Source: Mobula birostris (taxonomy: Eukaryota). From it: a stretch of 64,000 bases of DNA. The translations under genes and the position numbers were made by a program. This document shows positions 14,771 through 48,420 of this stretch, one piece after another. The first letter of the stretch is position 1. The number at the start of each line of letters is the position of its first letter. The stretch is from contig NC_092373.1 of the NCBI RefSeq assembly GCF_030028105.1, forward strand, positions 138,514,278 through 138,578,277, read 5' to 3'. The notes under the pieces are model-generated. The model searched no databases. It worked only from the letters and a program-made list of their open reading frames with translations, and was not told the DNA's origin.

Positions 14771-15870
14771 ACACACAAAATGCTGAAGGAACTCAGCAGG
14801 CTAGGCTGCATCTATAGAAAAGAGTAAGCAATCAATGTTTCGGGCCAAGACCCTTCATTAGGACTGGAGAAAAAGAGATGAGAAGTCAGAGTAAGGTGGG
14901 AGGGGGGAGGGGAGGCAGAAGTACAGGGCAGTAGGTGATAGGTGATAGGTGATACGGGGGTGGGGAGAGGTGAACTAAGGAACTGGGAAGTCGATTGGTG
15001 AAAGAGATAAAGGGCTGGAGAAGGGAGGATCTGATAGGAGAGGACAGAAGGCCATGGAAGAAAGGGAAGGTGGAGCAACACCAGAGGGAGCTGATGAGCA
15101 GGTAAGGAGATAATGTGAGAGAGGGAATGGGGAATGGGGAATGGTGAGGGGTGGGGGTGGCATTACCAGAGGTTCTAGAAATCAATGTTCATGTCACCAG
15201 GTTGGAGGCTACCCAGATGGAATATAAGGTGTTGCTCCTCCAACCTGAATGTGACCTCTTCATTGACTGACATGTTGAAATGAGAATGTGAAGTGGAATT
15301 ACAATGGGTGGCCACCAGGAGATCTCACTTTTTCTGGTGGATGGTGGCCACACCGGAAGCCTTGGATACAGTAGATGACCCCAACAGACTCACAGGTGAA
15401 AAGTCCAGTCACCTGGAGGGGCTGTTTGGTACCCTCAATTGTAGTGAGGGAGGAGGTGTAGGGGCAGGTGTAGCACTTGTTCTGCTTGCAAGGATAAGTG
15501 CTAGGTGGGTGGTCAATGGTGGGGGGGGGAGCCGCGTGGGGAGGGAGTCGCATAGGGAGTGATCCCTGCAGATAACAGAAAGTAGAGGGAGGGAAAGATG
15601 TGCCTGGTGTTGGGATTCTGTTGGAGATGGAGGAGGTGGTGAGTTGGTAGGTGAGGACAAAAGGAACCCTATTCCCTTTTTGGGTGACGGGAGGATGGGG
15701 TGAGGGCAGACGTGCGTGAAATGGAAGCGGTGTAGTAGAGGGTAGTGGTGATGGTGGAGGAAGGGAATCCCTTTCTTTGAAGTAGGAGGACGTCTCCTTA
15801 GTTCTGGAATGAAAAGCCTCATCCTGGGAGCAGATTTGGAGGAGATGGAGGAATTGAGAGAAGGGAATGG
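14771..15870 (-). mobile_element. Penelope-like element 3' part (Cys-rich linker, GIY-YIG region, pyrimidine-rich UTR, hammerhead-bearing terminus)
   Basis: ORF 15299-15553 contains CKQNKCYTCPY...FTCESVGVIYCI; degenerate hammerhead at 14829-14866. Confidence 0.88.
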
Positions 15871-17399
15871 CGTTTTCTTTTGTTTGTGATTAGCATAGCT
15901 GTTAGATTTAGAAACCAACATTTATAGATACAGTACTATAAATTTTAGTCCTGTGTTTAAAAGGTTAAGCACCTGAAACTGTCTCAAAAGAGAGTGACAA
16001 GAAGCAATATTTCATTCTCTTTAGCTTACAGTACCCATATACTCAGCATGTGGCCCATACTTGAACAGTCCAGCTGACTGGAGGGGTCTACCGGGAAATT
16101 CCTGTCACAAGCAGCCATAGAATAACATTTCAATATGATGCATTCTTCCAGTCTGTCAGCAGTACCATGATTGGTCTGACAGTATTAATCCGCCCAGATG
16201 TTCAGAGTTTTCTGAAAGAGGTCCCAAGACAGTAATTTACTGCCTGTTTTCTGCTGATGGGTCCCTAATCCATTTAATTAGCAGACTCCAATGAGCTGTC
16301 AATAGTTCCCCTGTAGGACATCATACAGAAATAACAAGGAAACATTTTAGTCAAACCTATTGGCCTCTCAATCCACTACTGGGCATTTGCTGTACAAGGT
16401 ACAAGCAGTCTAAGTTTATCATTACAGTGCTTGATTAATAGTCACTAGCTTCCATTAGTAGTAAAAATCATACCTATACTTAAATGAAACACAACCTTTG
16501 AAGAAGAGTTTCCGTTGCCTCATTTGTATATCTATAACTACATTTTAACTGCAACATAAGTAAATAATATGAATTTATTTATTTAAACTGAATTTTAAAA
16601 CTCACATTTTCACCACCTCACTTGAGATCAGAATATGACTAAATCAGTTTTAGATTAAATGTTTTAAATGTCAGATGTGAAATTCTAGTGCCATCCCAGT
16701 TGAAGCAGGAGTGATAAATAGTAGCTTTAGTGTGGGTTTAACAGCAACATAGCTATAGGCACAATGGCTTCTTTCTGTGGCTTAAACATGGCATAATATT
16801 CAAATAGCTGTACTTCAATTTGGAAAGAATCACTTACCAAAGGTTATTATAATAAAGTGCATTATAACTTAACAGAAAACATGTAGCGTGGGAGTATTTC
16901 ACAAAACAGATTGCTAAGGCTCTTATTTTAACCCTTGTCCTGTATTAAGTAAGCTAATCCTCCCTTAAACAGCTACAAAAATAAAAATATTTGCCCTGAG
17001 TGTTTACTTCCTACGAGTCAGGTAAATAAGACAAGGATTCACCTTTGAGTTGTTATATAGAAATGGCAGTTGGCCAAGCGTGTGGCCATCAGACAATGAC
17101 AGAATCAGGCTTATTGCGATGGCTCTTGAGTTTCTTCGCTCTCACATGAAAGCTGGCCAACTTTTAAAAGAAACAAGGGAGCATATTGTTCATCAAATAT
17201 TACCACCACATTCTGGAGAAGAGGAATGATTTAAAGACAAAAAAAATTGAAAGAAGAGGGGCCTAATAATAAAAAATAATGTAAAACGTTCCCCAGCAGA
17301 TGTTAATTTAGTTCTGTGCAGTGATAATATCATTGTCAGTCAGAGAAGATGTAGTTAAATCTGCTCGAGTTGGGTGAGCTGGAATAAGCATTGCTTCAG

Positions 17400-17461
17400 A
17401 TTGTAACATCGAAACAACAATCTATTGGTCTCTCTCTTGCTGTTGAAAGGGTCCCCCTCTT

Positions 17462-17501
<40 letters not shown>

Positions 17502-17827
17502 TGTAGAAGTGTTGGGTTATGGTCTGTAGTTTCTGTTGAACTGCAGAGCATGGGCTCTTTAGGGGCTTTACTATTGCTTGCTTGTTGGGTGGTGGGCACT
17601 GATGTTTCCTGCTGGAACAAGTTGGGCGGGGGAAGGAAGAGAGAAGGGGAGGGTTGATGCTTTGCTGCTGCTTGTGCATGGGACGGGGGTGGGAGAGCTT
17701 TGGGATTCTAATGTTCTGTCATTTGTTCATTAAAGGTTTCTTCTGTTTTGTGGATGTCTGCAAAGAGTAAGAATTTCAAGTTGTATACTGTATACATTCT
17801 CTGATATTAAATGGAACTATTGAACCA
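17400..17827 (+). mobile_element. Non-coding non-autonomous retroelement, 3' part, containing a (GA)n tract
   Basis: Collinear similarity to 23975-24382, including the end tgtatacatt(t)ctctga(t/c)attaaatg. Confidence 0.55.
17462..17500. repeat. (GA)n microsatellite
   Basis: About 19 GA units with one interruption. Confidence 0.95.
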
Positions 17828-17896
17828 GTAAATAGGTCACTGCTAATGAAGTTGGTCAGATTTCTGAGTATTTCCGAAACTGATTTCAGTGAGTTA

Positions 17897-18152
17897 CAGA
17901 GTCATAGAGAGAAACAGAATGGAAAATGGCCCTTTAGATGACTGATACTGCATTGAGAATAAAGCATCTTTTTACACTAATTCTACATTAACCCTACATT
18001 CTCATCAGTTTCCCTCAGATTCTATCACTCGCCTACACACCAGAAGTTATTTACAGTGGCCAAACACCTACCAAATCATACCTCTTAGTTATGTGAAATG
18101 AAATCAAAGCACCGTGAAGCAGCAGCTCTACAAACAGTGCTACTGTGTCTCC
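17897..18152 (-). mobile_element. SINE relic with CR1-like tail
   Basis: agagtcatagag tail; body atttacagtggccaa...cctacc; head remnant gtgaagcagcagctct...gctactgtg. Confidence 0.5.
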
Positions 18153-18344
18153 ACAAAAGGGGAAGATCGTTTCATATGAATTGCACACAATTTTCATGAG
18201 ACTATATCCCACTCACAGGCTTTTTCTTGATAGCTATCTCATTTTTACTCTGGGTAGTCACTGCAGTGCATGTCATGTGTTTTATTTCCTCCTGCTCTTG
18301 AAATAGACTCTGTTTTCTAAGTAAATTGAATTATCTGTGTTAAG

Positions 18345-19047
18345 TCAGAATCAGGTTTATTATCACTGGCATATGACGTGAAATTTGTTAACTTAGCAGC
18401 AACAGTTCAATGCAATACATAATATAGAAGAAAAAAAATGACAATAAAACAAAAATTATAATAAATAAGTAAATCAATTACAGTATATGTATATTGAATA
18501 GATTAAAAATCATGCAAAAAAACAGAAATAACATATATTAAAAATGTGAGGTAGTGTCTAAGGGTTCAATGTCCATTTAGGAATCAGATGGCCGAGGGGA
18601 AGAAGCTGTTCCTGAATCGCTGAGTGTGTGCCTTCAGGATTCTGTACCTCCTACCTGACAGTAACAGTGAGAAAAGGGCTTGCCCTGGGTGCTGGGGGTC
18701 CTTAATAATGGACACTGTCCTTCTGAGATGCCACTCCTTGAAGATGTCCTGGGTACTTTGTAGGCTAGTACCCAAGATGGAGCCAGCTAAATTTACAACC
18801 CTCTGCAGCTTCTTTTGGTCCTGTATCCACCCGCCCCCATACCAGACAACGATACAGCCTGTCAGAATGCTCTCCATGGTATAGAAATTTTTGAGTGTAT
18901 TTGTTGACGTACCAAATCTCTTCAACCTCCTCATGAAGTACAGCTGCCGTCTTGCCTTCTTTATAACTGTATTGATATGTTGGGACCAGGTTAGATCCTC
19001 AGAGACCTTGACACCCAAGAACTTGAAACTGCTCACTCTCTCCACCT
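18345..19047 (-). mobile_element. Rex1-type LINE 3' fragment
   Basis: ORF 18584-19045 (FKFLGV...RFRNSFFPSAI) and (TGATTC)n tail; same family as 58000-61648 and 30305-30890. Confidence 0.9.
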
Positions 19048-19459
19048 CCAGGCATACATCCTCCCGTGTCTCCAGTTGACTTCAATTTCTCGAGTGATTT
19101 GTATCTGGAAGCTCAACCTGCACTTCTGGGTGTGAATTCCACTTGCCCTGCCTGCTGTGAGAGGCATGAAATGATGCATTCCTTGTGTAATGTTCCTGGG
19201 ACAACCGTGCATTGCTATGGCTGCAAACCAGACTGGGGTGCATGCCAAATCGGTCGATAACTTAGTTTGCATCTGTAAATGCCCCTCCCCATTCCATCAG
19301 CCATTCTCATCCAACCACTGTCTTTGACTTAGGTTGCAATTCGGTGGTTGTCCAAGTTCCTAGCCTCTTTACCTCAATCTGCTACACTCTGGATTTTAAT
19401 TTCCTCACCATCATTTAAACATCTGTCTTGATTTTCATCCCCACCTCTGCCTGCAGTAG

Positions 19460-19595
19460 ACTCAATCTGCATTCCGTTATTACTTTCCCTTGTACTACCT
19501 CAATGTACCAATGTGATGAAATGATCTGTTTGGATGCATGCAAAGTTTTTCACTGTACCTCTACACATGAGAAAATAATAAATCAATTACCAATT
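19460..19595 (+). mobile_element. Rex1-type 3' UTR relic
   Basis: Resembles the reverse complement of 29215-29330 (tgtgatgaaatgatct...tttcactgta). Confidence 0.45.
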
Positions 19596-20498
19596 AAGCC
19601 CCATTATCATTTAAGTCACCCATCACCCAATCAACATTACAAATGCATGTCCTTATTCCTACCCTTTCTCTTTCCATAGGCTCAACTGGACTGATGCCTG
19701 CCATCTTTTGTGGATCCAGCCTCCAAGAGGAGCACCAGGTGACATACTAGTATTGGCAAAAGTATGCAGCACCTGCTCAGTTAACTCACCTACCTTAGCA
19801 GCAGATGAAAATTGCAGTAGGAACCCATAACCAAAATGCGACTGCACCCAGAATTACTTGTCAGTTCTTGTAATTTACCAGTGGCAATGTCTAAAGAATG
19901 TAGGTAGTGCTCTGAGTAGGGCTGATATTTAAGGTATTAAATGAAGCTTTCTCAACATTTCACAATCCTGCATGGTCTTCTTTGTCAAAATTTTTAGAGT
20001 TCATTTAATGTATTTGTTAGCAATGGAACCTGGCATTGAAGACACTGCCATCCATTTTTTAAAAAAATGATGTGTTCATGCACGATGCTCTTGTTGAGAA
20101 AGTAAAGTGATTCTATACATGTGGCATTGAAAACCAAATAACAGTTTACAGTTTTCAGAAAGAATTTTGATTAACTCTGAGGGGGGAAGGTATAATTTTC
20201 ACATTTCCTTTTTGTGCTGATCTGTTGAAGCAGTTCAGCACTCATTATAAAACCAGATGACCAATTGACTTTCACTCGCTATAAAACCCGTTGACTTCCA
20301 GCCTACTGGTTTTAGTTAACTTTAGTGGTGATTTGGGAGCCCCACGTTAGACAAGGCCAGCTATTTTGTGAATTATTGCATGATAGGAATTCATGATGCA
20401 GGTACTTAAAACTTCTGTTCCATTTCTGAAGGATCAGATGGAGATCATCTCCTGAACAAATTGCACCATTGCAGAAGCTCATTTCCATGAAGTAAACA

Positions 20499-20909
20499 GA
20501 GCAACACATACAAAATGCTGGAAGGGCTCAGCAGGTCAGGCAGCATCTACGGCATCCGCAGGCATGAATAAACAGACGTTTCAGGCTAAGAACCCTCAAC
20601 AGGACTGGAAAGGAAAGAGGAAGATGCAAAAATAAGAAGGTAGGGGAGGAGGAGGACAAGCTAGAAGGCGATAGGTGAAGTTAGGTGGGTGACGTGGGGG
20701 AAGGATGAAGTGAGAAGCAGGGAGGTGATAGGTGCAAAAGGTAAAGGGCTGGAGAAGAAGGAATGTGATATGAAAGGAGAGTGGACTATAGGAGAAAGGG
20801 AAGGAGGAGGAGCACCGGGGGAGGCAAGAAGTAGGTGAGAAGTAAGATGCCAGAGTGCGGAATTGAAGAACAGGGAAAGGGGAGGGGGAAGATTACCATA
20901 AGTTGTGTT
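20499..20909 (-). mobile_element. Penelope-like 3' fragment with 13-bp TSD
   Basis: Similar to 14771-15180; hammerhead-like motif at 20573-20606; catgaagtaa(a/t)ca at 20486-20498 and 20910-20922. Confidence 0.85.
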
Positions 20910-21544
20910 CATGAAGTAATCAATCCATGAGTTACTGCTCTACTCACACTATAGGATACATGGATGTCAGAACGATCCTGTCAAGTCTGAGAAGAGCATA
21001 AAGATGAGTCGTGAATAGTAATCTGCATGAACAAAATGAATAAAAGCTTGTGTCAAAAAACCTTTCATCACTTCTGTGCTTTTCCAAACAGTTGGAATAG
21101 TTGGAATAAGAAGTGACTTATCAAGGCAATGAATTATTTACATGAATAAATACTTATATACGGATAATACAGAGATGTGCCTCAAATGTTAGTGTGTAGA
21201 AAATTTCCAATAAGGACAGCATTCACATATGTTTATCTGGATTCCCACTAATAAGATCATAATTGACCTTGTAATGGATGCACCCTTCTCTCACCCACTC
21301 TTTTTCTACTCAGAAGTAACAAAGCGTAGTATAAATGAGGCAAGGGCTACTGGCCTTTAGAAAGAATAAGTGTTGTGGGGAAGTTCTAGCGAAGGAGGTG
21401 TACTGGCATTCAGAGAAGTGATTTGTCAACTTTTTATGGCTTCATTAAAACGGAGAATACTGGTTATGAATCCTCTATCTTGCTTTGACATTCGCCAGAA
21501 TTGCCAATAGATTTTAGCTAAACATTAATTGGGATAGCAGCGTA

Positions 21545-21814
21545 TATCCTTTTATCCAGAGGCACAGTGGATATGGTCTTCACTGTACTGCTCCAAGAAG
21601 AAAGTATGTTGCTGCACCAGGCATTGTATCTGACCTTTTGTGACTCCATCAGGGGAACGGACTAAGGACCACCCTCTTCATATTTGGTGCCAACAGATAT
21701 CTGTCTCCATTTTATGTTTGCTCTACAATGGCATGGACATTGTAATTTTCATCTATGGATCTATGGCTGAATCTCTATCAATGAAGACCCATGCCAAGCA
21801 AGGATGTGTCATGG
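21545..21814 (+). mobile_element. RTE-clade LINE RT relic
   Basis: Decayed RGTVDMVFT, LQE, FG(A/C) and KQGCVM motifs in the order expected for RTE RT. Confidence 0.55.
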
Positions 21815-21975
21815 TAACATGCACAACACCCTGGAGGAACTCAGGTCCTGATGAAGGGTCTCAGCCCAAAACGTTGACTGTTCGTTTCCACGGATGCTGC
21901 CCGACCTGCTGAGTTCCTCCAGCGTGTTGTGCATGTTGCTTTGACCCCAGCATCTGCAGAGTATTTTGTGTTTAT
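21815..21975 (+). mobile_element. Fold-back PLE-derived mini-element with hammerhead motif
   Basis: Inverted arms 21816-21844 and 21909-21937; hammerhead-like motif at 21843-21880; tail ccagcatctgcagagtattttgtgttt; imperfect TSD gat(gt/ac)gtcatgg. Confidence 0.85.
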
Positions 21976-22879: not shown

Positions 22880-23480
22880 TCAAAAGCAAAAGGGAAGGTG
22901 ATATGTGAAAAGGCCATACTTTAGGAAAGCTTGAAAACCTTAGTAAATATAGAGAGGAGATTGATAAGGTGAGAAACTTCATTAATGAGGAAAGATTAGA
23001 TATGCTTAAGACTGTTCTATTTAGAACAAAAATGTCTAAGGGATGACCTCATGGGCACTTTCAAGTTTTGACAAAAGTAGAGGAAAATTATTCCATTGTG
23101 TGTGTGTCTATTTTAGATTGACAACAAAAGACAAAGAGAAGAATGAGGAGAATTCTTGTCACACAGAGAAATGTCAAGATCTGAAGTATCCACTTGAAAT
23201 AGTGACACAAGCGACTACAGATTAAGGAATCTAGAGCAACATGCAAAGAAGCTGGAGGAACTCAATGAGCCAGGAAGAGAAATAGAGAGTGAACATTTTG
23301 GGTCAAAGCCCTTCATCAGATGTTATTTGAAATGCTAATGTTCTATTTCCTCTATAGATGCCTCCTGACTTGTTGCATTCTTCCAGCTCCTTTGTGTGTT
23401 GTTATCTGATTCTAATTTCATGCATAATTTTAAAATGGATTTGGACAGGTACTTAATATTGGAGAGTATGGTCCAAATGT
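22880..23480 (+). mobile_element. Very old CR1 3' relic
   Basis: Remnants of RLD-LRLF-LE, RDDL and FKMDLDRY motifs; interrupted by a PLE mini-element. Confidence 0.5.
23233..23415. mobile_element. Fold-back PLE-derived mini-element (older)
   Basis: gcaacatgcaaagaagctggaggaa pairs with ttcttccagctcctttgtgtgttgt; minus-strand ctgatgaagggctttgacccaaaatgtt within 23291-23319. Confidence 0.7.
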
Positions 23481-23565
23481 GCAGGTTTGTGATTCAATAT
23501 GAACTCTCTTTCAATGACTTAGCATAGTAATTACCAGTAGGTTGCCCCCCCTTGTGGGTGGAGTT

Positions 23566-24382: not shown

Positions 24383-24488
24383 TTTTAGATTTTGCCTGAC
24401 CTGGTGAGCGTTTCCTGTGCTTTCAGGTTTTCTTCTAAATTTCCAACATTTGCAGATTCTTTTTTAAATTTTAATTCCCCCGATGGTT

Positions 24489-30890: not shown

Positions 30891-31554
30891 GCAGCACATA
30901 AAGAAAGATCAAATAGCTTTTTATGTGCATGTACCTTGTACTCCCAGCAACTGTGCAGGACAGCAGATTAGATTAATAGTCTGTCTTACTGAATGTTATG
31001 AAAGATATGGTATATAATGAATATATGTTTGAAAATGGCATGAAATGACTTCAATGTTACACTGAAAACTAATGAGAGAAACAATAATGCTCTTCATTAT
31101 GATATGAATGGAGCAATTGCATTGTTAATTGCATTAACTGGATGGGATCTGATGACATGTCCAGGGATGGACTTCTTTCATTGTCATCAATTGACATAAT
31201 TGTCATTGCCCTCCTCCTCCTCTGTCCGCCCTTCTTCCACACTCCTCCTGTACAGACGTCGCAGAGCCTGAAAGACTGAACTTTCCTGATTGCGATGTTC
31301 TGGAGGACAGAACACTCAAGAGATGCCTGGAGAGTACTTCGGTGTACAGTATTGCCAGAATTCCACTTTCACTTTGTTATAAAGACGTGCTGTTGTACTA
31401 GCCACAGCAGAGACTGGAAATGGAAGCCAAGGAAGAAGAACCCTTGATTAACATGTGTCTGAACTCTGTACAAATTGGAGACCAAAATTTGGCAAGCTAC
31501 ACAGATTGGCTAAACATAAACATGAACCCTCCAAACACATGGTATTAGCTATTA

Positions 31555-31680
31555 AGCAACACACATAAAAATTGCTGGTGAACGCAGCAGGCCAGGCAGC
31601 ATCTATAGCAAGAGATACAGTCAACGTTTTGGGCTGAGACCGCTTGAAATTCCAGCATCTGCAGATTTCCTCGCGTTTGT
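31555..31680. mobile_element. 126-bp PLE mini-insert (inverted terminus plus tail) with perfect 13-bp TSD
   Basis: gtattagctatta at 31542-31554 and 31681-31693; partial minus-strand hammerhead at 31618-31641. Confidence 0.87.
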
Positions 31681-32619
31681 GTATTAGCTATTAGTTTATT
31701 TTGATAGACTTGCAGATTCTGAAGGGGAGAGGGTGAACTATAGGAATATGATTGTTTACCTCTTTGATAGTTAGGGTCCGTAATATTGGATGCAGGGAAT
31801 CAGAACACAAATCAGTTAACATTAATGCCTAGAATTATCCAGAGGCTAGGGAATTTGTAGTGATGTTGACTTCAGCGTTCACAGGCAGAATAATTTAGTT
31901 ACAGATAGGATGTAGGTCTCCTTAGACAAACACAAATATCTGTCGCCAGTGTCCATGAACATCCTTTGCCCCTCTTCTCCACCTTCAGTATCTTGTGGAC
32001 GTTTGTCCTGCTTCCAATATCCATCTTAGTGCCCCTGTAGTAATGCTAGATTGCCACGGGGGCACTCAAGGCAAAGTTATTTAATTGAGAAATGGCATTG
32101 CACTTTTCCCAAGTAAGCATGAAAATCTGTGAATGCCACTTGTTACCCCAGACAGCTCAGTGAAGCTGAAGGTAAAAGTGCAAGTCGCATGGCTGAGTAG
32201 TCCTTTTACGAATGCAGATGCAGTGAGTGAATTACTGTAACAACGTAATTTCCTGTGAGTGAACAACACCTTTCTGAAATCATAGTAATACAATTCAATT
32301 TCATCTGTCAAAAATAGCATATTACAACTGATGCATCTTTCCAATGGTGTAATTTGCATAAACTGAATTTAAACAAAAATTTGAATCATAGAATACTGCA
32401 CTACACAATCCAATTTCTAGACTATTATTGTGATAAACTGAACAATATAAAACTTTCTGTTCAATACACATGATCCATTTTTTTCTTGTGTTAGCTATCA
32501 GCTATGTACTGTAAACTGAAATTTGAATCCAAGGTGCTCCAGGTGTGTCTCATTTGGGATCATTGGGAGCATGTCCAGTTTTGGCTCAGTTTAATATTTA
32601 TTAAGATGTACAAGATATT

Positions 32620-33252
32620 GACGTGAATTACTTGCAGTATTGTGTGTAGCTCTGTTTGCTGAGCAATAGGAAGGAAATCATCAAGCTGCAGTGGATGCAG
32701 AGAAGATTTAGAAGATGTTAACTGGAAATGGTTTTGGCTTGAAACATTGACTCTTCATTTCCTTTCCGAGATACTGCCTGATGTACTGAGTTTCTCCAGT
32801 GCTTTGTGTGTGTTGTTTCACAAGGTTGTTACCAGGTCTGGAAGGCCTGGATTAATAAGGAGAGCCCGGATAGACTGAGACTATTTTCCCTGGGGTATAG
32901 GAGGCTGATGGACGCCTTTATAGAGGTATATGAAATCTTGCGGGGCATAGGTAAGGTGAATGGACAGAGTCATTTTCTCGGAGGGGAATCTAAAACTAAA
33001 GGCTTCAGATGAGAGGCAACCTGAGGGGCAAGTTCTTCTCACTGAGGTTGGTGAGTGTATGGAATAAGTTGCCAGAGGAAGTGACATAGGTGGCATATTT
33101 ACAATGTTTAAAGGACATTTGAACAGGTACATGAATAAGAAATATGGGCCAAATGTAAGTATATAGGCCTAGCTCAAGTAAGTATCTTAGTCAGCATGGA
33201 TGAATTGGACCTAAAGACCTGTTCCATACTATATAGTTCTATGTCTCTATGA
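32620..33252 (+). mobile_element. CR1 3' fragment with nested PLE terminus (~32730-32818)
   Basis: ORF 32806-33012 (DRLRLFSLGYRRL, IEVYEILRG); tail ttctatgtctctatg; nested gaaacattgact...tttgtgtgtgttg. Confidence 0.75.
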
Positions 33253-33802: not shown

Positions 33803-34350
33803 AAAGCTACCTTTTTCTATTTTTAATAAGCCAGTAAAATCTAAACAAAATGTCAGCAGTAGAGGATACACCAGCCTTACTCACCCTGTTTCTTCAAACC
33901 TGAGCACTAGGTAATTGTAGGAAAATGAAATAGTTAACCTACGTTCAAAGAAATGGCTTGTGCTGAAATCATCTTTCTGTACAACTGATAAACTGATCAC
34001 TTTTCTTTACACATATTCTCATCTTCCTACTTGACCAGATACTTTTAAAACTTTACTTTGCGTGGTATATACCATTACAATAGAAACAAATTGCTTAAAG
34101 GCAAGGCAGATTTAAATTTACCAAGTCATCTTATTAGTTGTGTAAAGGTCTTGTTTTCTGTTCCCGCCTGCGACAAGACCTTAGAACTTATTTTACTCAT
34201 GGAGTTTAAGGAAATTTGCTATTATAACATCCAGTTTGGTGATACCTTGTATGAGCAATAGAAAGAAGCTTTTAAAATCCCTGGTCTATTTTATCAGAAC
34301 CAGGTGCTGGACTTTGATTGATTGCTGATTTTACAATATGTTCAATATAT

Positions 34351-34489
34351 GACAGTCCAGATGAAGGCTCTTGACCCAAAACTTCGACTATCCATCTTCC
34401 TCCACAGATGCTGCCTAACCTGCTGACTTCAGCGAGCAGATTGCTTATCTTTGCTTTAGATTCCAGCATCTGCAGTCTCTTGTGTCTCC
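34351..34489 (+). mobile_element. 139-bp PLE terminal insert (hammerhead plus tail) with perfect 12-bp TSD
   Basis: tgttcaatatat at 34339-34350 and 34490-34501; hammerhead-like motif at 34353-34390. Confidence 0.87.
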
Positions 34490-35030
34490 TGTTCAATATA
34501 TCCATCTTGTTTATAAATAACTTCATCCATCTTAAGTGGAATCTTTGGAGAAATGGTATCAGGACAAATGGAATTCACCCATGCTGGCTGATTATTGTTG
34601 GACACAAAGGTGAGAAGCCTCAGGCACTGGTTACAAATAAAAATCATCAATGAAAATATCTTTGCTGAGTTGAACTATTGCAAAGCATCAGCACAGTTAT
34701 GCAATTAAATGCATTATATTCAATAAAATGTTAATTTCTTGTTTCTCCAAACTCCTATGTGATACAAGAGATCTGCAATTATATTTGTGTTCAGCTTCAA
34801 GGGAGCTATCATAAACACAAAAGTTTTCAGAGGAAGCAACAGTTTCAAAAGAAAAATACTGTCCAGTGACGTCAATACAGACATTTGTTCTTCTTCCCCC
34901 CCGCCCCCCCCACCCCCACAAGAGTTTTGAGATCTAATTGAAAATGTTTGCATTTGGAGCTGATTTTGGAAAGATTATGCCTGACCTTTTGCAATTTTGT
35001 TACCTGAATTTCCCATCTATTAAATTGTGA

Positions 35031-37085
35031 TTGGTAATTGAGCCTGTCTTTAATGAAAAAGGGAGTGTGAGCTATTGTATCAGAGTTTATTCACTGTTGC
35101 ATTTGTCTTGAACCTAGTTGACAGCAAGGGCCTAGAAATTATTGGATGGCCAATTCCTTTGTCATATGCACTGTGATGCTGGACCACAACTGAAGCAGAG
35201 GGGGTGAGGAACTGGAAAAGGAAGAATTGTATCAGTTTCTTTTCAAAGCTCCTCTTGTGCCCATTTAGAAACATAGAAACATGGAAACATAAAAACATAG
35301 AAAATAGGTGCAGAAGTAGGCCATTCGGCCCTTCGATCCTGCACTGCCATTCAGTACGATCAAGGCTGATCATCCAACTCAGAACCCTGTACCTGCATTC
35401 TCTCCATACCCCCGATCCCTTTAGCCACAAGGGCCATATCTAACTTCCTCTTAAATATAGCCAATGAACTGGCCTCAACTGTTTCCTGTGGCAGAGAATT
35501 CCACAGATTCACCACTCTCTGTTTGAAGAAGTTTTTCCTCATCTCGGTCCTAAAAGACTTCCCCTTTATCCTCAAACTGTGACCCCTCGTTCTGGACTTC
35601 CCCAACATTGGGAACAATCTTCCTGCATCTAGCCTGTCCAATCCCTTTAGAATTTTATACGTTTCAATCAGATCCCTCCTCAATCTTCTAAATTCCAGCG
35701 AGTATAAGCCTAGTCGATCCAGTCTTTCATCATATGAAAGTCCTGCCATCCCAGGAATCAATCTGGTGAACCTTCTTTATACTCCCTCTATGGCAAGAAT
35801 GTCTTTCCTCAGGTTAGGGGACCAAAACTGCACACAATACTCCAGGTGTGGTCTCACCAAGGCCTTGTACAACTGCAGTAGTACCTCCCTGCTCCTGTAC
35901 TCGAATCCTCTTGCTATGAATGCCAGCATACCATTCGCCTTTTTCATCACCTGCTGTATCTGCATGCCCACTTTCAATGACTGGTGTACAAAGACACCCA
36001 GGTCTCGTTGCACCTCCCCTTTTCCTAATCGGCCACCATTCAGATAATAATCTGTTTTCCTGTTCTTGCCACTGAAGTGGATAACCTCACAGTTATCCAC
36101 ATTAAATTGCATCTGCCATGAATTTGCCCACTCACCTAACCTATCCAAGTCACCCTGCATCCTCCTAGCATCCTCCTCACAGCTAACACTGCCGCCCAGC
36201 TTCGTGTCATCCGCAAACTTGGAGATGCTGCATTTAATTCCCTCATCTAAGTCATTAATATATATTGTAAACAACTGGGGTCCCAGCACTGAGTCTTGCG
36301 GTACCCCACTAGTCACTGCCTGCCATTCTGAAAAGGTCCAATTTATTCCCACTCTTTGCTTTCTGTCTGCCAACCAATTCTCTATCCACATCAATACCAT
36401 ACCCCCAATACCATGTGCTTTAAATTTGCACACTAATCTCCTGTGTGGGACCTTGTCAAAAGCCTTTTGAAAATCCAAATACCTGTATACCACATCCACT
36501 GGTTCTCCCCTATCCACTCTGCTAGGTACATCCTCAAAAAATTCTATGAGATTCGTTAGACATGATTTTCCTTTCACAAATCCATGCTGACTTTGTCTGA
36601 TGATTTCACCGCTTTTCAAATGTGCTTTGATAACTGACTCGAGCATTTTTCCCACCACCGATGTCAGGCTTACCGGTCTATAATTCCCCGGTTTCTCTCT
36701 CCCTCCTTTTTTTAAAAAGTAGGGTTACATTAGCCACCCTCTAATCCTCAGGAACTAATTTCCTGAGCTTGAAGGCAATAAGGGCTGCACAATTAAATTA
36801 GCATTATGCACAACCTATATAGTATGCATCTTTACAACATTGTAAAGCCTCAGGTTTGTTCTTATCATCACAGAATACAGCAATGGAGTACAAAAATATT
36901 AATAACTTTTAGAATGTTTTTTTGTGATTCAGACTTTTCCATATTTCTAATGTTATTTCTTTTTGGTTATTACGCCTTTTTTTCCCTCAAGCTTTGAGTG
37001 CACCATAATTTTAAAGTTCATATGCCTTAAAATGAACTGTCTTTGGTAACTCAGCCTGTCTTTAATGAAAAAGGGAGTCTGAGCT
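35031..37085. repeat. 43-bp direct repeat pair (35031-35073 and 37043-37085)
   Basis: ttggtaa(t/c)t(g/c)agcctgtctttaatgaaaaagggagt(g/c)tgagct, 40 of 43 positions identical. Confidence 0.9.
35266..36760 (-). mobile_element. Relatively young 5'-truncated CR1 LINE (RT and 3' UTR)
   Basis: ORF 35777-36658 (293 aa; LDFQKAFDKVPH, SGVPQ, KFADDTK) continuing into 35360-35761; (TTTCTATG)n tail. Confidence 0.95.
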
Positions 37086-40638: not shown

Positions 40639-41752
40639 AAACACGAGAAGATCTGCAGATACTGCAAATCCAAAAGGATATGCACAAAATGCTAGATGAA
40701 CTCAGCAGGTCAGGCAGCATCTATGAAAAAGAGTAAACGGTCGAACTGTCACGGTGAAACCCTTCTTCAGGACTGAGAGGAAAAGGACGAGATAGTGGAA
40801 TTAGAAGATATATTTAGTTGATAGTGATAAAGTCCCTCCTGGCCCTACCTGCCACTCCATCAGCTTCCGCATCCAACTCATTATCCTCCACAGCTTCCAC
40901 CATCTCCAAAAGGACCCCACCACTAAACATATTTTCCCCACCCACCCCCAGCTTTCCACTTGGATCACTCCCTCTGTGATTCCCTTGTCCATTTGTCCCT
41001 CCCTGCTAATCTTCCTCCATGCAAGCAGCCTCAGTGCCATGCTTGCCCATACACCTCCTCCCTCATCCAGAGGCCCAACCAATCCTTCCAGGTGAGGCCA
41101 CACTTCACCTGCGAATCTGCTGAGGTCGTCTGTTGTGTTCAGTGCTCCTGATGTGGCCTCCTTTATATTAGTGAGACCCATTGTAAATTAAGGGACTGCT
41201 TTGTTGAGCATCTTGGCACCTTCTGCCATATGCCGTACTTCTCGGTGGCCAAAGATTTTAATTCTGATTCCCAATCCTTTTCCATTGTTGATCCATGGCC
41301 TCCTCTTGTGCCAAGATAAGGCCAGCCTCAGGGTGGAGGAGCAACACCTTGTATTCTCTCTGGGTAGCCTCCAACCTGATGGCATGAATATCGATTTCTC
41401 CTTTTGGTGAAAAAAATATTACCCCACCTCCTTTATTCCCCACTTTGACATTTTATTTCTCATCTGCCTATTACTTCCCCCTGGGTCCCCTCCCCACTTC
41501 CCTTTCTCCTATTGTCCACTCTCCCCTCCTATCAGATTCTTTCTTCTCCAGCCCTTGACCTTTTCCACCCACCCAGCTTCACCTATCACCTTCCAACTAG
41601 CCTCTTTCGCCATCCCCACCTTCTAATTCAGCTATTTTGTCCCTTCCCTCTCAGTTCTGAAGAAGATTCTCGACCCAAAATGTCTACTATTTATTCTTTT
41701 CTGTAGATGCTGCCTGACACTCTGAGTTCCTTCAGCAGTTTGTGTGTGTTGC
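40639..41752 (+). mobile_element. Penelope-like element with inverted terminal copy
   Basis: Left ~150 bp is an inverted terminus with tail and hammerhead (40738-40775, minus); body encodes CKQPQCHACPY...FTCESAEVVCCVQCS*CGLLYISET (GIY-YIG region); sense hammerhead relic at 41652-41689. Confidence 0.88.
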
Positions 41753-41937
41753 TTTGAATCACTGGCTTTGCTTTGCACCACCTTATGTACATACAACCAC
41801 TCTATGTATATAACAGTTACTTGTACATTGTATTTTGTAGGATTGCTTATATATTTGTTTTTATTGTGGGTTTTTTTGTGTTCTTTATGCTTATTCTGCG
41901 TTTTTATGCTGCATCAATTCTGCAGTAACAATAATTT

Positions 41938-42318
41938 TAGAACATAGAACATAGACCATAGAAACCTACAGCACATTACAGGCCCTTCGGCCCACAATGT
42001 TGTGCTGACCATATAACCAACTCTAGAAACTGCCTAGAATTTCCCTACTGCATAGCCCTCTATTTTTCTAAGATCTATAGACCTATCTAAGAGTCCGTTA
42101 AAAGACCCTATTGTATTTGCCTCCACCACTGTCACTAACAGTGCATTCCATGCACCCACCACTCTCTGTGTCAAAAACTTACCCCTGACATCCCCCTTGT
42201 ACCTACTTCCAAACACCTTAAACTTTGCCCCCTCATGTTAGCCATTTCAGCCCTGGGAAAAAGCCTCCGCTCACGATCAATGCTTCTCATCATCTTATAC
42301 ACCTCTATCAGGACTCCT
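41938..42318 (-). mobile_element. CR1 3'-end fragment
   Basis: ORF 42034-42216 (FLTQRVVGAWNAL); tandem tail seen as agaacatagaacatagaccatagaa. Confidence 0.85.
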
Positions 42319-42925
42319 CTACATCCGCTCCGTCCGCCACAACAAACAGGATCTCACAGTAGCCACCCACTTCAACTCTGCTTCCCACTCCCATTCAGAT
42401 ATGTCCATACATGGCCTCCTCTACTGCCATGATGAGGCTAAACTCAGGTTGGAGGAGCAACACCTCATATACCATCTAGGTAGTCTCCAGACCCTTGGTA
42501 TGAATGTAGAATTCTCCAACTTCCGGTAATTCCCTCCCCCTCCCTTCCTCTATCCCTATGTCACTCTGCCCCCTCCCCCAGCTGCCTATCACCTCTCTCA
42601 TGGTTCCACCTCCTTCTACTACCCCTTGTGTTTTCCCCTATTCCTTCTTCACCTTCCCTGCCTATCACCTCCCTGCCTCCCCTCCCCCACCCCTTTATCT
42701 TTCCCCTTACTGGTTTTTCACCTGGAACCTACCAGCCTTCTCCTTCCCACCGTCCCCCCACCTTCTTTATAAGGCCTCTGCCCCTTTCCTACAGTCTTGA
42801 TGAAGGGTTCCGGCCCGAAACGTCGACCGATCTTTTCCACGGATGCTGCCCGACCTGCTGAGTTCCTTCAGCGTGTTGTGAGTGTTGCTTTAACCCCAGC
42901 ATCTGCAGAGTATTTTGTGTTTATG
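42319..42925 (+). mobile_element. Penelope-like 3' fragment (best-preserved terminus)
   Basis: End of GIY-YIG ORF (VATHFNS, LEEQHLIYHLGSLQTLGMNVEFSNFR*), pyrimidine-rich UTR, hammerhead and tail. Confidence 0.9.
42792..42829 (+). ncRNA. Minimal type I hammerhead ribozyme motif (C3U variant), PLE-associated
   Basis: CAGTC-TTGATGA-AGGG-TTCCGG-CCC-GAAA-CGTC-GACCG: core boxes, stem II GGG/CCC, stem I with one mismatch, GUC cleavage triplet, palindromic ACGT in place of stem III. Confidence 0.72.
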
Positions 42926-43289
42926 ATACCAATGTGCCCAGTTGGAGGCAGGTAGTAAACAGGAAAGGTGGCACTAGTGAGAAAAAATAATTGATATATA
43001 CAGTACATAGAAACAGATGCTACTGATGAAAAGTTATACAAATAACTTCCCAAAATCTGAGCAGCACGTGGAGTAACAGCGATGAGAGATGAGATGAAAA
43101 TTGATAAAAAGGAGGTAGTAAAATGGTTGGATACGCGAAAGGTAAATGGGTCACTAGCCATGGATGTGATCATTCTAGGTAAGAAAATGGTGTAAATGTT
43201 ATTGAAGAGCTTATGATCTTCCCATTAGATATGCCACAGGTGGAATTTGGATGTAAAAATTTTTCAGGCAACTCCATGCCTGTCAGTTT

Positions 43290-43520
43290 AATTCTGGTTG
43301 CGAGGAAGCCTTTGTAAACAGAAATCTGTGAAAACAATAATTGGTACTTGGGAAAATTTGAATTAATAAAGGAAAGCTAGCACAGATTTCTTAAAAGCTG
43401 GTTAAGTCTACATAAACTGAATTTTTTGATGCAAGAACCAAGACATTTTAAGAAGAAAATTCAATAGATGCTGTCAACATAAATATTTTTGGTGATGTAT
43501 ATAGATTGTTGAAAGAATGC
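43290..43520 (+). mobile_element. Very old CR1 RT relic
   Basis: Remnants resembling ESQHGF-K...L-EFFD. Confidence 0.35.
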
Positions 43521-43947
43521 ATTCAAGGTCAATGTCTAATGTTGAAGGACCTGATCTGAATTTCCCTTAACTTCAGATTTAACTTCAGCTTTCCAATAAT
43601 AGAGGTTTTGTTTTAAATCATCTCCAATTTTAGCATATGTTCACCAATATTTTTACAATATATTACAACTGAAATCTATTTTTTAGTTTTAAACCTTATA
43701 TTCAAAACATTGCTAAAATACTCCAATTCAAAATATTAATTTTTTTAATACAAATTTTCCATGGTTTAGTTCAGACTCACGAAGTGACAGAATCTGTGCC
43801 ATGACTGTTAACTAATCCACAGGCCAGGATTAATAACTAGTCCAATGACTAGTTATTTGAAAGTTTATATGTATTAAAAGATTTGCTGTGAAGTTATAAT
43901 AAAGTATAGCTTTGGAATATGTCCAGAATAGACTGACAAAAAGGATT

Positions 43948-44012
43948 GAGTTCCTATGGTGTTTTGTGTGTGTTGCTTTAGATTTCCAGCATTTGAAGAC
44001 TTTCTCCTGTCT
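43948..44012 (+). mobile_element. PLE tail fragment
   Basis: gagttcc...ttttgtgtgtgttgctttagatttccagcatttgaaga matches the other PLE termini. Confidence 0.65.
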
Positions 44013-44822
44013 GTAACAAAAAGGACAGTTCTTCAAAAATTCAGAAATGAATTTCAATGTATTGTAACACACGTCAACTGACAGGTGGGCAAACATGAAT
44101 TAGAAATGCTCAGCTCCTTAAACTAGGAAAAAATCCATTACTCTGGAATGAGATCTTCCAAAGTTTTCAGTTATGTTTATTTTCAAAACAAACATTCGGA
44201 CAGATTGTAACTTCTTAAAACAGATGGCAAAAGCTACAGTTTTGACATTGCTCCTCTGTCTTTCTTTCAGTTGATGCATGGATATTTTCTTAGAAAGATG
44301 ATGTTTTATACATATGTTCCATCACTGGGTTGATTCAACTTTAGTTAATGAAGACACGCTGCTTTCTGTGTTAATATGCAAACAGTGGTTTGACCTAAGG
44401 GAGGTGCCAAAATAAATCTTAGGTTTGGTCCTTGACTGCTGAGAATTTCATAACCACAGCTTTCTCAGTTGTTTATTCAGGCTCAAAACCAAGAAATGGG
44501 AAGTCATTGTTTGAGGTTTGGTGCTAAATACTACTAATGAAAAATATGGTTTTAATTCTTTCATAACTAATCATACACCTGATCGACTCTGCAACTGCTT
44601 TTTCAAAGCTGGACAATTTTCTGGTGATGCACAAGAATGAAATCAATATGGTTGGTGGTTTCCTTCCACTGATTTATTTAACTCTTTGGCACAGAACTTG
44701 TCACATCGACCTTGAATATTTATCTGCATTTCCATTAACCCATCTCCAATTCAGTCCATTTATCAACCTCATGTAACTGCAAGTAGCACTCTATGTTAAA
44801 CATTAATCCATACAATCGAATA

Positions 44823-45641
44823 TAGTGGACTGTAGTTAATTGGGCCACCAGTTAATCGGTGAGCAGCTTATTTGGAACAATTCTTAAAGAACAAAAACTA
44901 ATCAAGAAAATAGCTGGGAGACCCTTCATTTATTTGAGACACTATGCCGCTTAATTGGGGACGGAGACAGTTTCCACACAGTTTCTGACTTGCATCCAGA
45001 TGCATGCACTTGTATGGATGTTAGAAACTACACCATGCTTAGAGCGCATAGTTTTTAAATAGTATCAGTCGCATGCGCTTTTATTCAAAATGCACTGATT
45101 TTTGTCACTAAGAGTCAGCGAGAAACAAGCAGTAAAATAATTCTGAACTGTTTTGCTCACTGTGGTTTCAAGCATTCAGGTTTGGAGATGCTAGGAACGG
45201 CCGATTGAAAACAAAACTATTTCACTATTTCAACAAGTTAGAAACTACAAGAATTTGAAGGTATTGACAGACAACTTGGTGCTACAATGAAAATGAAGAT
45301 TTGGAGGATGCAATCATCGATAGCATTCTATGAAGGTAATTCATTATCTGCACTGATTTTGTTCACTTACAGTCAGTCAAAACAATGCGTGCACTGAATG
45401 AATTTCTCTGTCAATAACTATTAGGAATTAATACACAGTTTAATAGTTCTGTAGTTGTATTGACAGAGTTATAACTTGTTTCTGTATTTCATTTAACTAC
45501 ATACTTGTTACTCAGTTAAATGATAGTTTGTCTTTTTATATCTTTTTAACTAGTGCCATGAAACTTTGGCTAATTGGGGCAGCTGCTTAATTGGCCAAAA
45601 TGTACTGGTCCTGATGTGTCCCTGTTGATTGAAATCCACTG
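44823..45641 (+). mobile_element. Non-autonomous pogo/Tigger DNA transposon derivative
   Basis: Degenerate TIRs (TA|tagtggac... and ...aatccactg|TG); subterminal ttaattggg repeats; internal IILNCFAHCGF, resembling the pogo/Tigger transposase C-terminal NCF-xx-GF motif (~45136-45168). Confidence 0.75.
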
Positions 45642-46164
45642 TGTTTTTATTGCAGACTCATGACTTGATTTGACATAGAGGTTGAAGTATTCATGTTAAA
45701 ATTTCACCTTTTCCTTCATTAACTCAAAAAAAGTTGAGCTTCCTGTTTCAATGGTAGAATGATTTTTATTATGTTACTACCTCAACTGCACAATTGTCTG
45801 AAACAAAAAACAGTGGATTAAACTAAATTTTCCATCATGTCCCACTGTTGTCATTCACTAAATACTTTTCTAAAAGCGCATCATCCTAGTGAAGCTGATT
45901 AATGCACCTCTGGATCAAGCAAAATCAGGGAAAAAATACAATCAAAATCATTTCCTGCAGAAAATCCATGTGTTTAGGTGTAATTACTCGAAACTGTCAT
46001 TTGAAATTATAACACACACAAGAAAGACACCTCTATATTGTGCTGTTATGTCTTGTCATATGTTATTCCGCTGCTCATTCACACCACCAAGCGCCACATC
46101 ATATCCTCATCCCTCTTGCACACAAACTGATTACTGGCATAAATTAATTTCTCTAATTTACAAT

Positions 46165-46565
46165 AATCTTCCACTCCCTTCTTCTCTCTTTTCCCCATTC
46201 TCGTTACACTTTCATCCCTTCTCTGTTTCTTACCTTCCTATCACCACCCTTTGTTTCCCCTCCTTCTTACATTTCTTCCATTGTCCACTGTCTTCTCCTA
46301 TCAGATTCCTTCTTTTTCAGCCCTTTACCTTTTCCATCTTTCATCCCCTTCCTCTACCCATCCACTTTCTCTCTCACCTGGTCCCACCTATCTGGCTTGT
46401 ACTCCCTCCCCTCCCCTCCCTTCTTATTCTGGCCTCTGCCCAGCCCCGATGAAGAGTTTTGGTGACCGTTCATTCCCCTCCATAGGTGCTGTCTGACTTG
46501 CTGAGTTTCCCCAGCATTTTGTGTATGCTGCTCAGGATTTCCAGCAGCTGCAGAATGTTGTGTTT
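46165..46565 (+). mobile_element. Penelope-like 3' UTR and terminus fragment
   Basis: Pyrimidine-rich UTR (cctatcagattccttctt), partly deleted hammerhead at 46441, tail ttccagcagctgcaga. Confidence 0.75.
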
Positions 46566-47309
46566 ATTCATAGATACACTCATGTTATCGCTCTCTCTTC
46601 CACATACACATTCATCCTTGTTGGAAGTCCATGCAGATTAAGTCAGAAACTTTGTTTAGACATTTCATGTTAGTGGTGCCCTTGAGATGTCAACTATATT
46701 GAGTCTGTTTCTAGTTTACAAGCTTGGAACATACTTGTAAGCCCCTGGATGATAGCCAAATATTTGATGTGTCATGCTTTATGGTGCTTTTAAACATGCA
46801 GCCAATGTTCACCAGAGTGAAAATGCAGGAGCAACAATTAATGTCCTATGCCCACAGCTTTCCTGATGTTTCCACTTTATATATGAGGATATATCATCAA
46901 GTATAGCATGAGTTGATACATTGATATCTCTTTTAGCATAAACCAACATCCCGCACTTTCATCTCCTGCCATTTGAAGAACAAGTTAGAACATTACCATA
47001 TCCTAATATTTCCCAAGTAAAGGAACCACATGGTGAGCTGCGAGTTACTTCTTTACTAACTCCAGTCCTAGCTTACTCACAAGTCCTAAGCAACCCTTCT
47101 TAAATCACCAGTCAGCAGTAGGGGCTGGAGCTCCCTGTAAACTTCCTTTCTCCTTCCTTCTCCCTCCATATTCCTAAGAAGACATGACATAAGTAGCAGA
47201 TTTTATACCTTAAGTCAATTAACATAAAAGCATGAAAACTAGGAGCCCTACAGCTCATTGAGCAAACATCAAGACCATGGACTTCCACCTCAGCACCATT
47301 TTCCAGTGC

Positions 47310-48420
47310 ATTCAAGATCACTTGATTCCCTTAATACTCAAACGTCCCTCAGTTATAAATGAACACAGTCACTGAGGTCCCTCTGGAGCTAGGAGCTACA
47401 AAGATTCAGTTGCATCTGAGTGAAGAAATCTCTCCTCATCTCAGAAACTCTTCTTCTTAATCTAAATTGTTGTATCCTTACTCAGAGCAAGCAGTGAAAG
47501 TTAATATTCCTTCTGGCATTTAGCCTGTTCAGTCCTTTAAGAATTTGTAACATTTCAATAGGTTTCCCATTTTCTCTAAGTTCTAAGGAATACAGCCCTA
47601 ATGAACTTAGGCTCTTCTCATACACCAAACCCGTCCCTAGAATCTGTCCAACACTTCCTTTCCCAAATAGGGAGACCAAAGCAGTTTACCATATTTCTGG
47701 TATAGTCCCACCCAGGACTGATATAATTGCTATAAGACTCCATTGTTACTGTAGTTGAACCCTCTCATAATAAAGGCCAACATGCCACATGCTTCACAAA
47801 TTATTTCCTACATTTGTCCTGAGTAACTTGTGTACAATGGATCGCCATCCCTTTAAACATTAGTAATACACAATCTCTCAACATTTAGCAAATATTCTGT
47901 TTTTTTGTTATGTGCACCAAAGTGATAGGCATCAAAATTTTCCCCAATATATTCAATTAGTTAAATTCTCACCCATTCATTCTGATGGCCTACATCCCTT
48001 TGATGTCTCATTAAATCATTCTGGGATATGCATCATCAGATCCGGGGGATTTAATAAGTTTCAAATTCACCAACTTTCCTCGAACTATTTTCTTACTAAC
48101 ACTTACTTCCTCCAGTTTTTCATTGTCACTAGACCCTTAATTCTCCAATGTACTTAATTCTCTAAGTACTGCTGAAGGGTCTTGGCCCAAAATGCCAACT
48201 GAACTCTTTTCTATAGATGCTGCCCGGCGTGCTGAATTCCTCCATCATTCTGTGTGTGTTGCTCTAATGTACTTAGTAGTTTTACGTATGTTTCTTTTTC
48301 TATGAAGATAGAGGCAAATTGATTGTTTAATTCCTCTACCATTTTCTCATTTCTCATTATATACATGTGACTTTGTCTGTAAGGAACTCATGTTTGCCTT
48401 TAATAATCTCTCCTGCTTGT
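47310..48420 (-). mobile_element. Old CR1 LINE fragment
   Basis: ORF 47482-47679 (LGLYSLELRE, LQILKGLNRL); interrupted by a PLE insert. Confidence 0.62.
48157..48265 (+). mobile_element. PLE terminal insert with 10-bp TSD
   Basis: aatgtactta at 48147-48156 and 48266-48275; hammerhead relic at 48164-48201. Confidence 0.78.

Follow-up and report, generated by a model that had tools for sequence, protein, structure and literature searches.

A minimal hammerhead motif in the terminal repeats of an abundant Penelope-like element of Mobula birostris, and the template RNA ends suggested by its insertions

A short hammerhead-like repeat recurs on both strands of the 64,000-nucleotide stretch of Mobula birostris DNA analysed here (the window), and it raises the question of what the repeat is and whether a ribozyme set the ends of its copies. 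The original prediction placed copies at 12 coordinates, and a profile search found the same repeat at all of them, on the expected strand, among 15 matches in the window and none in reversed sequences. When up to 12 mismatches from a real 38-base copy were allowed, 8 places were found in the window and none in each of five shuffles. Both halves of the core are intact in none of the 15 matches, and the hammerhead family is absent from the 12 weak Rfam matches (E up to 10) in a scan of the window. G12A, present in six of the 12 named copies (21843, 23291, 31618, 34353, 41652 and 48164), is a change expected from CpG decay. Three copies with attached coding remnants lie in the sense orientation about 255-310 nt downstream of GIY-YIG-region remnants; the predicted arrangement is correct for these, but full-length elements carry the motif upstream as well. 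Pfam gave no match in 13 window frames (PLE-region or other short frames); 4 of 17 window frames are LINE-type reverse transcriptases. The window copies are decayed passengers of a very abundant Penelope-like element (PLE), and none is intact. The features are:

14829..14866, minus strand: decayed minimal hammerhead with G5A, its palindrome gone; it forms the 3' repeat in a truncated PLE
15169..15877, minus strand: broken remains of PLE coding sequence with thumb, Cys linker and GIY-YIG region, lying upstream of the hammerhead at 14829
20573..20607, minus strand: decayed hammerhead with A6U and small deletions; PLE 3' untranslated region upstream
21843..21880, plus strand: hammerhead with G12A and C17U; the sense copy begins 3 nt before C3, after an inverted tail piece
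23287..23319, minus strand: decayed hammerhead with G12A that has lost stem I; one half of a head-to-head pair
23329..23396, plus strand: partial opposite arm of the pair with 23287..23319; new to this analysis
31618..31641, minus strand: 3' half of the hammerhead only (5' half missing), beginning in stem II, with G12A
31542-31554 and 31681-31693: 13-bp duplication flanking the insertion with the 31618 copy
32727..32753, plus strand: 3' half of the hammerhead only, 5' half missing
34353..34489, plus strand: short insertion from the front edge, a decayed hammerhead (34353-34390; U4A, G12A) plus tail
34339-34350 and 34490-34501: 12-bp duplication flanking the 34353 insertion
40738..40775, minus strand: decayed hammerhead in which both GAAA and stem II are broken; it is the inverted arm of the insertion at whose end the 41652 copy lies
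40826..41401, plus strand: broken PLE coding remnant (linker and GIY-YIG region)
41652..41689, plus strand: decayed hammerhead with G12A, stem II broken
42329..42526, plus strand: PLE endonuclease C-terminal remnant
42792..42829, plus strand: the best-preserved copy in the window; C3U is its sole core change
46441..46468, plus strand: hammerhead with U4C; a deletion of about 10 nt takes out GAAA
48164..48265, plus strand: short insertion from the front edge; hammerhead at 48164-48201 with A6C, G12A and U16.1C
48147-48156 and 48266-48275: 10-bp duplication flanking the 48164 insertion
61782..61892, both strands: head-to-head pair of partial copies (61782-61842 minus, 61822-61892 plus); new to this analysis, beyond the range of the original prediction

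The copy at 48164 is likely to belong to the A6C subfamily described below.

Full-length copies have the order motif, RT/GIY-YIG ORF, motif. In two of them, L081 and L082, the motif lies in both terminal repeats around the RT-EN ORF; the motifs of L081 are 3,723 nt apart with a 1,005-codon frame between them. The 797-residue frame of L082 matches RVT_1 (E 0.0014) and GIY-YIG (E 0.00014), both weakly and just under the Pfam cut-offs, and its protein has 245 relatives at E 1e-20 or better. We found a DKG-type motif, a C-x4-C-x2-C linker before the endonuclease (L082) and two cysteines inside GIY-YIG in these frames, with an ATG about 165 nt after C3, past the tail. Pseudo-LTRs, inverted truncated copies, an optional tail and target duplications (9-16-bp) were all found for the element. 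Judged by its sequence it is an EN+ PLE whose single ORF holds RT together with a C-terminal GIY-YIG domain, and its motifs (a CX2-5CxxC linker), not a tree, would assign it to a Neptune/Nematis-type clade.

This PLE carries the motif in its terminal repeat (pseudo-LTR), and the motif is a type I hammerhead of the minimal kind, with self-cleavage predicted; in this the original prediction is upheld, including the extra base after A9 and the palindromic ACGU that replaces stem III. It agrees with the consensus of PLE minimal hammerheads published in 2014. Among sampled copies the extra A at 9.1 is present in 92 of 97, and positions 15.2-16.2 are CG or CpG decay products thereof, in a palindromic ACGU with no helix III. 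The 31-base core of the predicted consensus has 1,184 exact occurrences genome-wide (0 in the control), but it is not the commonest intact form: among the matches listed, that form carries C7 and U11.1 where U7 and C11.1 had been predicted. The 10.1-11.1 pair is GC in 67 sampled copies and GT in 61; the youngest subfamily has U fixed at 11.1 and retains the pair as G-U.

The very large population that had been foreseen is there: a genome-wide pattern search (CUGANGA, GAAA and NUH intact, with 3-bp stems I and II) returned 51,525 exact intact motifs and none in the control. Remnants number about 850,000 by extrapolation and 13 of 209 sampled copies are intact, so that most of the population is dead. 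Outside the window, one locus (L093) carries a four-unit 67-bp array. In young copies core identity is 95.7% and that of the flanks 97.4%, meaning that the core decays like its surroundings; in older clusters the core stands slightly above the flank (92.8 vs 87.7% and 87.7 vs 84.1%, uncorrected), partly as an effect of base composition and alignment ends.

Where do the insertions begin and end? By hand tally of 100 listed 5' joints out of 4,620, 71 fall at 0 to -5, 22 at -6 to -28 and 7 are internal deletions, and a script check found 20 of 30 loci at 0 to -5; the denominator behind the joint counts is 51,051. An evenly spaced sample, from which 3 of 41 copies were dropped at stretch edges, has 15 of 38 young copies beginning at -4 to +8 and none at -5 to -25. 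Target duplications adjoin this front edge in four loci (L260, L270, L274 and L282). A cap-derived G is not in excess among joints at -4 (5 of 22, hand count), and inspection by eye found nothing at the expected spacing that matches the downstream promoter element of Drosophila Penelope. From the position of these joints, the front edge of the motif is likely to be the transcript start; this proposed arrangement differs from that in D. virilis, where transcription begins about 120 nt upstream of helix I.

At the other end, all 30 young loci terminate 60-110 nt past the predicted cut, 13 at +86 to +102 and 17 at +119 to +139, forming clusters at about +95 and +130 from C3. All 100 listed copies read through the cut; since a copy ending there would pass the read-through filter about 3 times in 10, this bounds cut-ended copies near 10%, not 3%. 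Insertions are made almost always with the motif uncut. The A6C subfamily has the same front edge, 15 of 30 of its loci beginning at -3 to -7 (hand count). In eight copies with the flank of this subfamily A6 never occurs (seven have C and one T), exact copies number 1,085 genome-wide, and the subfamily has spread widely. In other hammerheads A6C cripples Mg2+ cleavage, according to two papers (PMC3088659; PMC7151607).

We consider it probable that the motif, a minimal type I hammerhead, belongs to the pseudo-LTR of a Neptune/Nematis-type PLE, that the window copies are decayed, and that insertions are almost always made uncut, likely from an RNA starting at the first base of stem I. Transcription would begin at the A four bases before C3, in an initiator-like context, and the hammerhead would then form the 5' end of the RNA. 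Reverse transcriptase would prime, like that of the anole element, at two sites in the tail: starting from the tail of the upstream repeat, it would yield the hammerhead-plus-tail insertions of 100 and 135 bp, and starting from the downstream repeat, the longer 5'-truncated copies. A cDNA reaching the front edge would have the complement of stem I's 5' arm at its end and could pair with stem I's 3' arm in another cDNA, so that joints at the cut site may form with no cut having been made. Where motifs are intact, slow cleavage assisted by a dimer partner or by protein, as published for other PLEs, is likely, and any such cleavage would affect the RNA pool and not fix insertion ends. Hammerhead cleavage as a dimer was reportedly described by Lunse et al. 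in 2016, as a review tells it; in the monomer the hammerhead-shaped fold has -6.8 kcal/mol and a rival hairpin -11.7 kcal/mol. We put forward more tentatively, as possible rather than probable, the full scheme in which the transcript begins with the hammerhead itself, whose first stem arm doubles as initiator, tail priming mass-produces the 100- and 135-bp insertions, the cut "fossils" reflect stem I annealing, and A6C at tens of thousands of copies shows catalysis to be dispensable for spread.

It is very improbable that the motif is a look-alike arisen by chance, or a signal at the DNA level, with no ribozyme history. Single-motif folds do resemble those of shuffles (z -0.6 to 0.55 for seven of eight, the exception being one fold-back locus), an uninformative outcome and one to be expected of minimal hammerheads. 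Sampled copies of the main family contain no two-sided compensatory change and vary mostly by CpG decay, which also suits a look-alike. Against it, four other families (B-E) in the same genome retain the core unchanged while their stems are wholly replaced by unrelated ones, and the complementarity of stems I and II was not demanded by the search pattern; the predicted stem covariation thus exists between families and is missing within the main one. One of the four is nearly identical to a published fugu motif, and placement in both terminal repeats is that of the published class. Five families keeping one core with different stems would also be expected if the hammerhead cut PLE transcripts in vivo and the cut RNA were the normal template, so that cleavage set the element ends, as would the two motifs in one transcript of a full-length copy; 5' joints lie exactly at the cut in 238 cases against 75 at a control 3 nt away (3.2 times). 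Those 238, however, are under 1% of young copies with the filter allowed for, stem I microhomology marks 53 of 100 listed cut-site joints (hand count) and 13 of 30 scripted ones, and the excess falls to about 1.5 times control once the stem I class is removed. In an unselected listing the cut position takes 6 of 100 joints, no more than two non-cut positions with 7 and 11 (hand count). With the 3' ends past the cut and the A6C subfamily amplified, we judge this account improbable, and with it the earlier proposal that the motif processed the RNA ends.

The front edge might instead mark a 3' splice site, a place of resolution by the endonuclease or a stop of reverse transcriptase at a protein-bound or dimerised hammerhead. 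Upstream of stem I in a young copy stand a CUUAC resembling a branch point, a pyrimidine tract and a UAG ending at -3, the intron of the D. virilis element ends at helix I, and head-to-head insertions are common, with joints throughout the motif. Yet no common first exon precedes the joint, which the target duplication adjoins, and a fold-stalled enzyme should stop at the 3' side of the hammerhead, where joints are unpeaked; that four contig sets list no splice joint at the motif, nor any start or end there, is a weak point against splicing, as contigs could not reveal one. These alternatives seem to us rather unlikely, and transcription start at the front edge is the reading that we prefer.

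The identification itself is ordinary because the motif class is already published. The value of the family lies in sample size, in that tens of thousands of young insertions make the termini of the template RNA readable in the genome and so bear on the question of the role of PLE hammerheads; the additions of the present analysis are the start-site reading and the A6C subfamily. In the anole Poseidon element PAc (Frangieh et al. 2024, PMC11167929), mutating the hammerhead leaves insertion in vitro normal, and RNA-seq contains no reads that terminate at the cut. Our findings extend the in vitro result, that cleavage is unneeded for insertion, to a living genome, and if our reading is true the spread of A6C is a natural in vivo test of catalysis being dispensable for PLE spread. 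A literature search, with subscription journals, Repbase/Dfam and bioRxiv supplements outside its scope, found nothing on this element family in sharks or rays, on the front-edge boundary or on an A6C PLE subfamily.

The minimal hammerheads that metazoan PLEs carry (Cervera and De la Pena 2014, PMC4209133) have the same core and extra base after A9, a palindromic ACGU without helix III and a short stem I, and they too lie in two terminal repeats, mostly as solitary truncated copies with opposite-strand neighbours. Stem II has 3-4 bp here and 5-8 bp in most of their rows, some of which share the 10.1-11.1 G-U of our youngest subfamily; the supplement text, in all files but one, has no shark or ray row. 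Their counts are about 4,000 for coelacanth and 9,000 for Xenopus, as against 51,525 exact intact copies here. With Neptune/Nematis EN+ PLEs (Craig et al. 2021, PMC8557442) the element shares a C-terminal GIY-YIG with an internal Cys pair, the CX2-5CxxC linker, partial tandems, inverted 5'-truncated copies and a 30-40-bp tail, and its copy number greatly exceeds the tens of thousands reported for Naiads. The non-LTR retrozymes (bioRxiv 10.64898/2026.07.22.740005, a preprint covering one chondrichthyan) are likewise hammerhead-bearing, non-coding derivatives of PLE terminal repeats; they consist of tandem complete-hammerhead units, whereas the window copies are dispersed singly or head-to-head, and we did not adopt that identity. 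In PAc (PMC11167929), too, the 3' ends fall at two positions, which are about 35 nt apart and define a tail, and uncut RNA is the main template, and the extension of both target strands reported for it would suit the head-to-head copies seen here. The PAc ORF begins inside the hammerhead and Poseidon lacks the Cys linker, whereas here the ATG lies past the tail and the linker is present. The A6C hammerhead variant (PMC3088659, PMC7151607) has the same core change as our subfamily; there it is known from one phage RNA and an engineered mutant, while here it marks a multiplied PLE subfamily whose activity is putative.

Copies of one repeat are present at all 12 positions where the original prediction had placed hammerhead motifs (sequence check of the window), and a profile made by iteration from the genome's copies gave 15 matches in the window and none in the reversed sequence. 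In none of the 15 have CUGANGA and GAAA both survived intact. Among the 12 named copies, six carry G12A, a change that arises when the CpG at C11.1-G12 decays and that also serves as the customary inactivating control; an Rfam scan of the window returned no hammerhead family. The window copies are therefore relics, and the motif that had been rebuilt from them was nearly, not fully, correct. Motif density in the window is ordinary relative to the genome sample. A tail piece of the main-family Penelope-like element (PLE), without the hammerhead, lies at 43947-43999 (+), and a hairpin at 7563-7630 weakly resembles microRNA families on each strand, with matches below threshold. A large share of the window is repeat, and four frames belong to other retroelements:

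9939-10574, minus strand, LINE-type reverse transcriptase (RT) frame, RVT_1
35777-36724, minus strand, LINE-type RT frame, RVT_1
59024-59929, plus strand, LINE-type RT frame, RVT_1
62471-63259, plus strand, LINE-type RT frame, RVT_1

The abundance that had been claimed for the motif was borne out. In the 4.01 Gb searched, the 31-base core first proposed has 1,184 exact matches (control 0), a looser core 17,523 (control 79) and the full descriptor with 3-bp stems 51,525 (control 0); 100 evenly placed 10-kb stretches of 16 large contigs (990,000 readable bases) held 209 profile matches, which extrapolates to about 850,000 remnants genome-wide. Intact copies number 13 of these 209. In a separate comparison of copies, identity is down to 49-68% at CpG positions and about 79-95% at the remaining core positions. 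Core, stems and flanks are alike in their identity to the consensus in the youngest cluster (95.7%, 96.8% and 97.4%), so no selection is visible in the decay of copies once inserted. The copies are mostly dead; the class is already known and the host family is new, and in the literature searched we found no paper on the main family, its front edge or its A6C subfamily.

The PLE open reading frame sits upstream of the motif, and an RT probe of the genome gave 45,751 first-look candidates. One full-length locus, L081, has two motifs 3,723 nt apart enclosing a 1,005-codon frame that shifts close to its end; an ATG lies about 165 nt past C3 of the core, and the terminal repeat is 760 nt. This frame (L081:4054-7071) has a long N-terminal part that is Pro/Ser-rich and in which about 65 residues are duplicated. 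A second locus, L082, has a 797-residue RT-to-endonuclease frame with weak matches to both RVT_1 and GIY-YIG, and its C-x4-C-x2-C linker, of a kind that Craig et al. (PMC8557442) attribute to Neptune and Nematis, suggests a placement of that type. Named relatives of the protein come from sharks and a stingray, which makes an elasmobranch host likely. Among the insertions, arms lie head to head, 3' ends fall at two positions and target duplications measure 9-16 bp, all PLE traits already known. A long simple tandem repeat (L084:1-5278) lies close to the tandem PLE pair of L082, and copies sharing one 601-codon frame recur on contig G000:C17, where the motifs of two loci (L098, L099) are identical, perhaps through segmental duplication.

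The proposal that the motif processed the ends of PLE RNA fared poorly. The predicted cut lies between +27 and +28 from C3, and at each of the 30 young loci the 3' end is past it, at +86 to +102 (13) or +119 to +139 (17). All 100 of the copies listed continue through the cut, under a filter that a cut-ending copy passes about three times in ten, which bounds such copies near 10%. The 5' joint falls inside the motif in 4,362 young copies; a hand tally of 100 listed put 6 at the cut, 7 at one non-cut position and 11 at another, and a direct count gave 238 joints at the cut versus 75 three bases away. Of these 238, about half (hand count 53 of 100 listed, script 13 of 30) join the stem I 3' arm of an antisense copy to a sense copy starting at the stem I 5' arm, and those left after this class are about 1.5 times the control, inside the position-to-position spread. 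As far as insertions show, cleavage does not set their ends; cut RNA may be used as template, rarely. A further recurrent joint (13 of 100 cut joints listed) has two bases flipped between a short inverted repeat at the motif start, suggesting a small fold-back during joining.

A boundary is found at the front edge of the motif, where stem I starts. Young copies that extend across the core number 51,051, and 4,620 of them passed a filter requiring a joint no more than 28 nt upstream. By hand tally, 100 listed of these 4,620 comprised 12 at position 0, 2 at -1, 10 at -2, 16 at -3, 22 at -4, 9 at -5, 13 at -6 to -11, 9 at -12 to -28 and 7 internal deletions, about 12-fold more joints per position at the edge than farther upstream. 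A script check put 20 of 30 upstream joints at 0 to -5, though mutated sites led to miscalls in 3 of the 30. Of 38 young copies sampled without selection, 15 started between -4 and +8 and none between -5 and -25. The target duplication abuts the front-edge joint in several inserts, and the window copies at 34353 and 48164 are front-edge inserts with target duplication. A sharp upstream edge with losses trailing into the motif is the expected trace of a template 5' end.

Transcription probably starts near -4, where the surrounding bases match the initiator consensus, YYANWYY, in young and old subfamilies; a cap-derived G is not in excess (5 of 22 joints at -4, hand count), which counts against such a start. 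Set against it is a 3' splice site of textbook appearance: upstream of stem I, L081:7157-7185 (minus strand) has a branch-point-like CUUAC, a pyrimidine tract and CAG/UAG at the stem I 5' arm, and the Drosophila virilis Penelope intron ends at the equivalent place. In the start-site model, RT would prime on the tail belonging to the upstream repeat, as PMC11167929 describes for the anole PLE, and cDNA ending at the edge would anneal to another cDNA at its stem I, yielding many of the cut-site joints.

Position 6 is C in 16 of the 134 sampled copies that cover it. Eight sampled copies share one diagnostic upstream flank and have C (7) or T (1) there and never A, so their master element carried C. 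Exact, otherwise intact A6C copies number 1,085, with about 50,000 remnants by extrapolation; older-type flanks occur at 28 of 30 A6C loci, and by hand count half of the 30 (15) have their start between -3 and -7. A6C reduces Mg2+ cleavage in two other hammerheads, by about four orders of magnitude in one, according to PMC3088659 and PMC7151607. If this effect carries over, the subfamily would have spread with little catalysis and its front edge unchanged.

The hammerhead identity first proposed stands: the motif agrees at each point with the consensus of Cervera and De la Pena (2014; PMC4209133) and, judged by sequence, is a minimal hammerhead of the known PLE class. As a monomer it favours a hairpin that is non-catalytic over the hammerhead fold, by about 5 kcal/mol, in line with reports on other PLEs (PMC4209133, PMC11167929) of activity that is low or depends on protein. 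Four direct 67-bp hammerhead units lie behind an inverted tail and within a 9-bp duplication at L093:8307-8703 (contig G000:C5), a small retrozyme-like array that could allow dimers to form in cis. Two-sided covariation was not found within the main family, but across other families the stems do covary: a search with the core fixed and the main-family stem forbidden gave 416 matches (control 16), most from four other families (L141-L170) whose stems I and II differ yet are complementary. Upstream of the motif in one of the four, in sense orientation, lie weak GIY-YIG remnants (E 0.004-0.04) of a Poseidon-like endonuclease, and another family is nearly identical to the published fugu motif (Xena).
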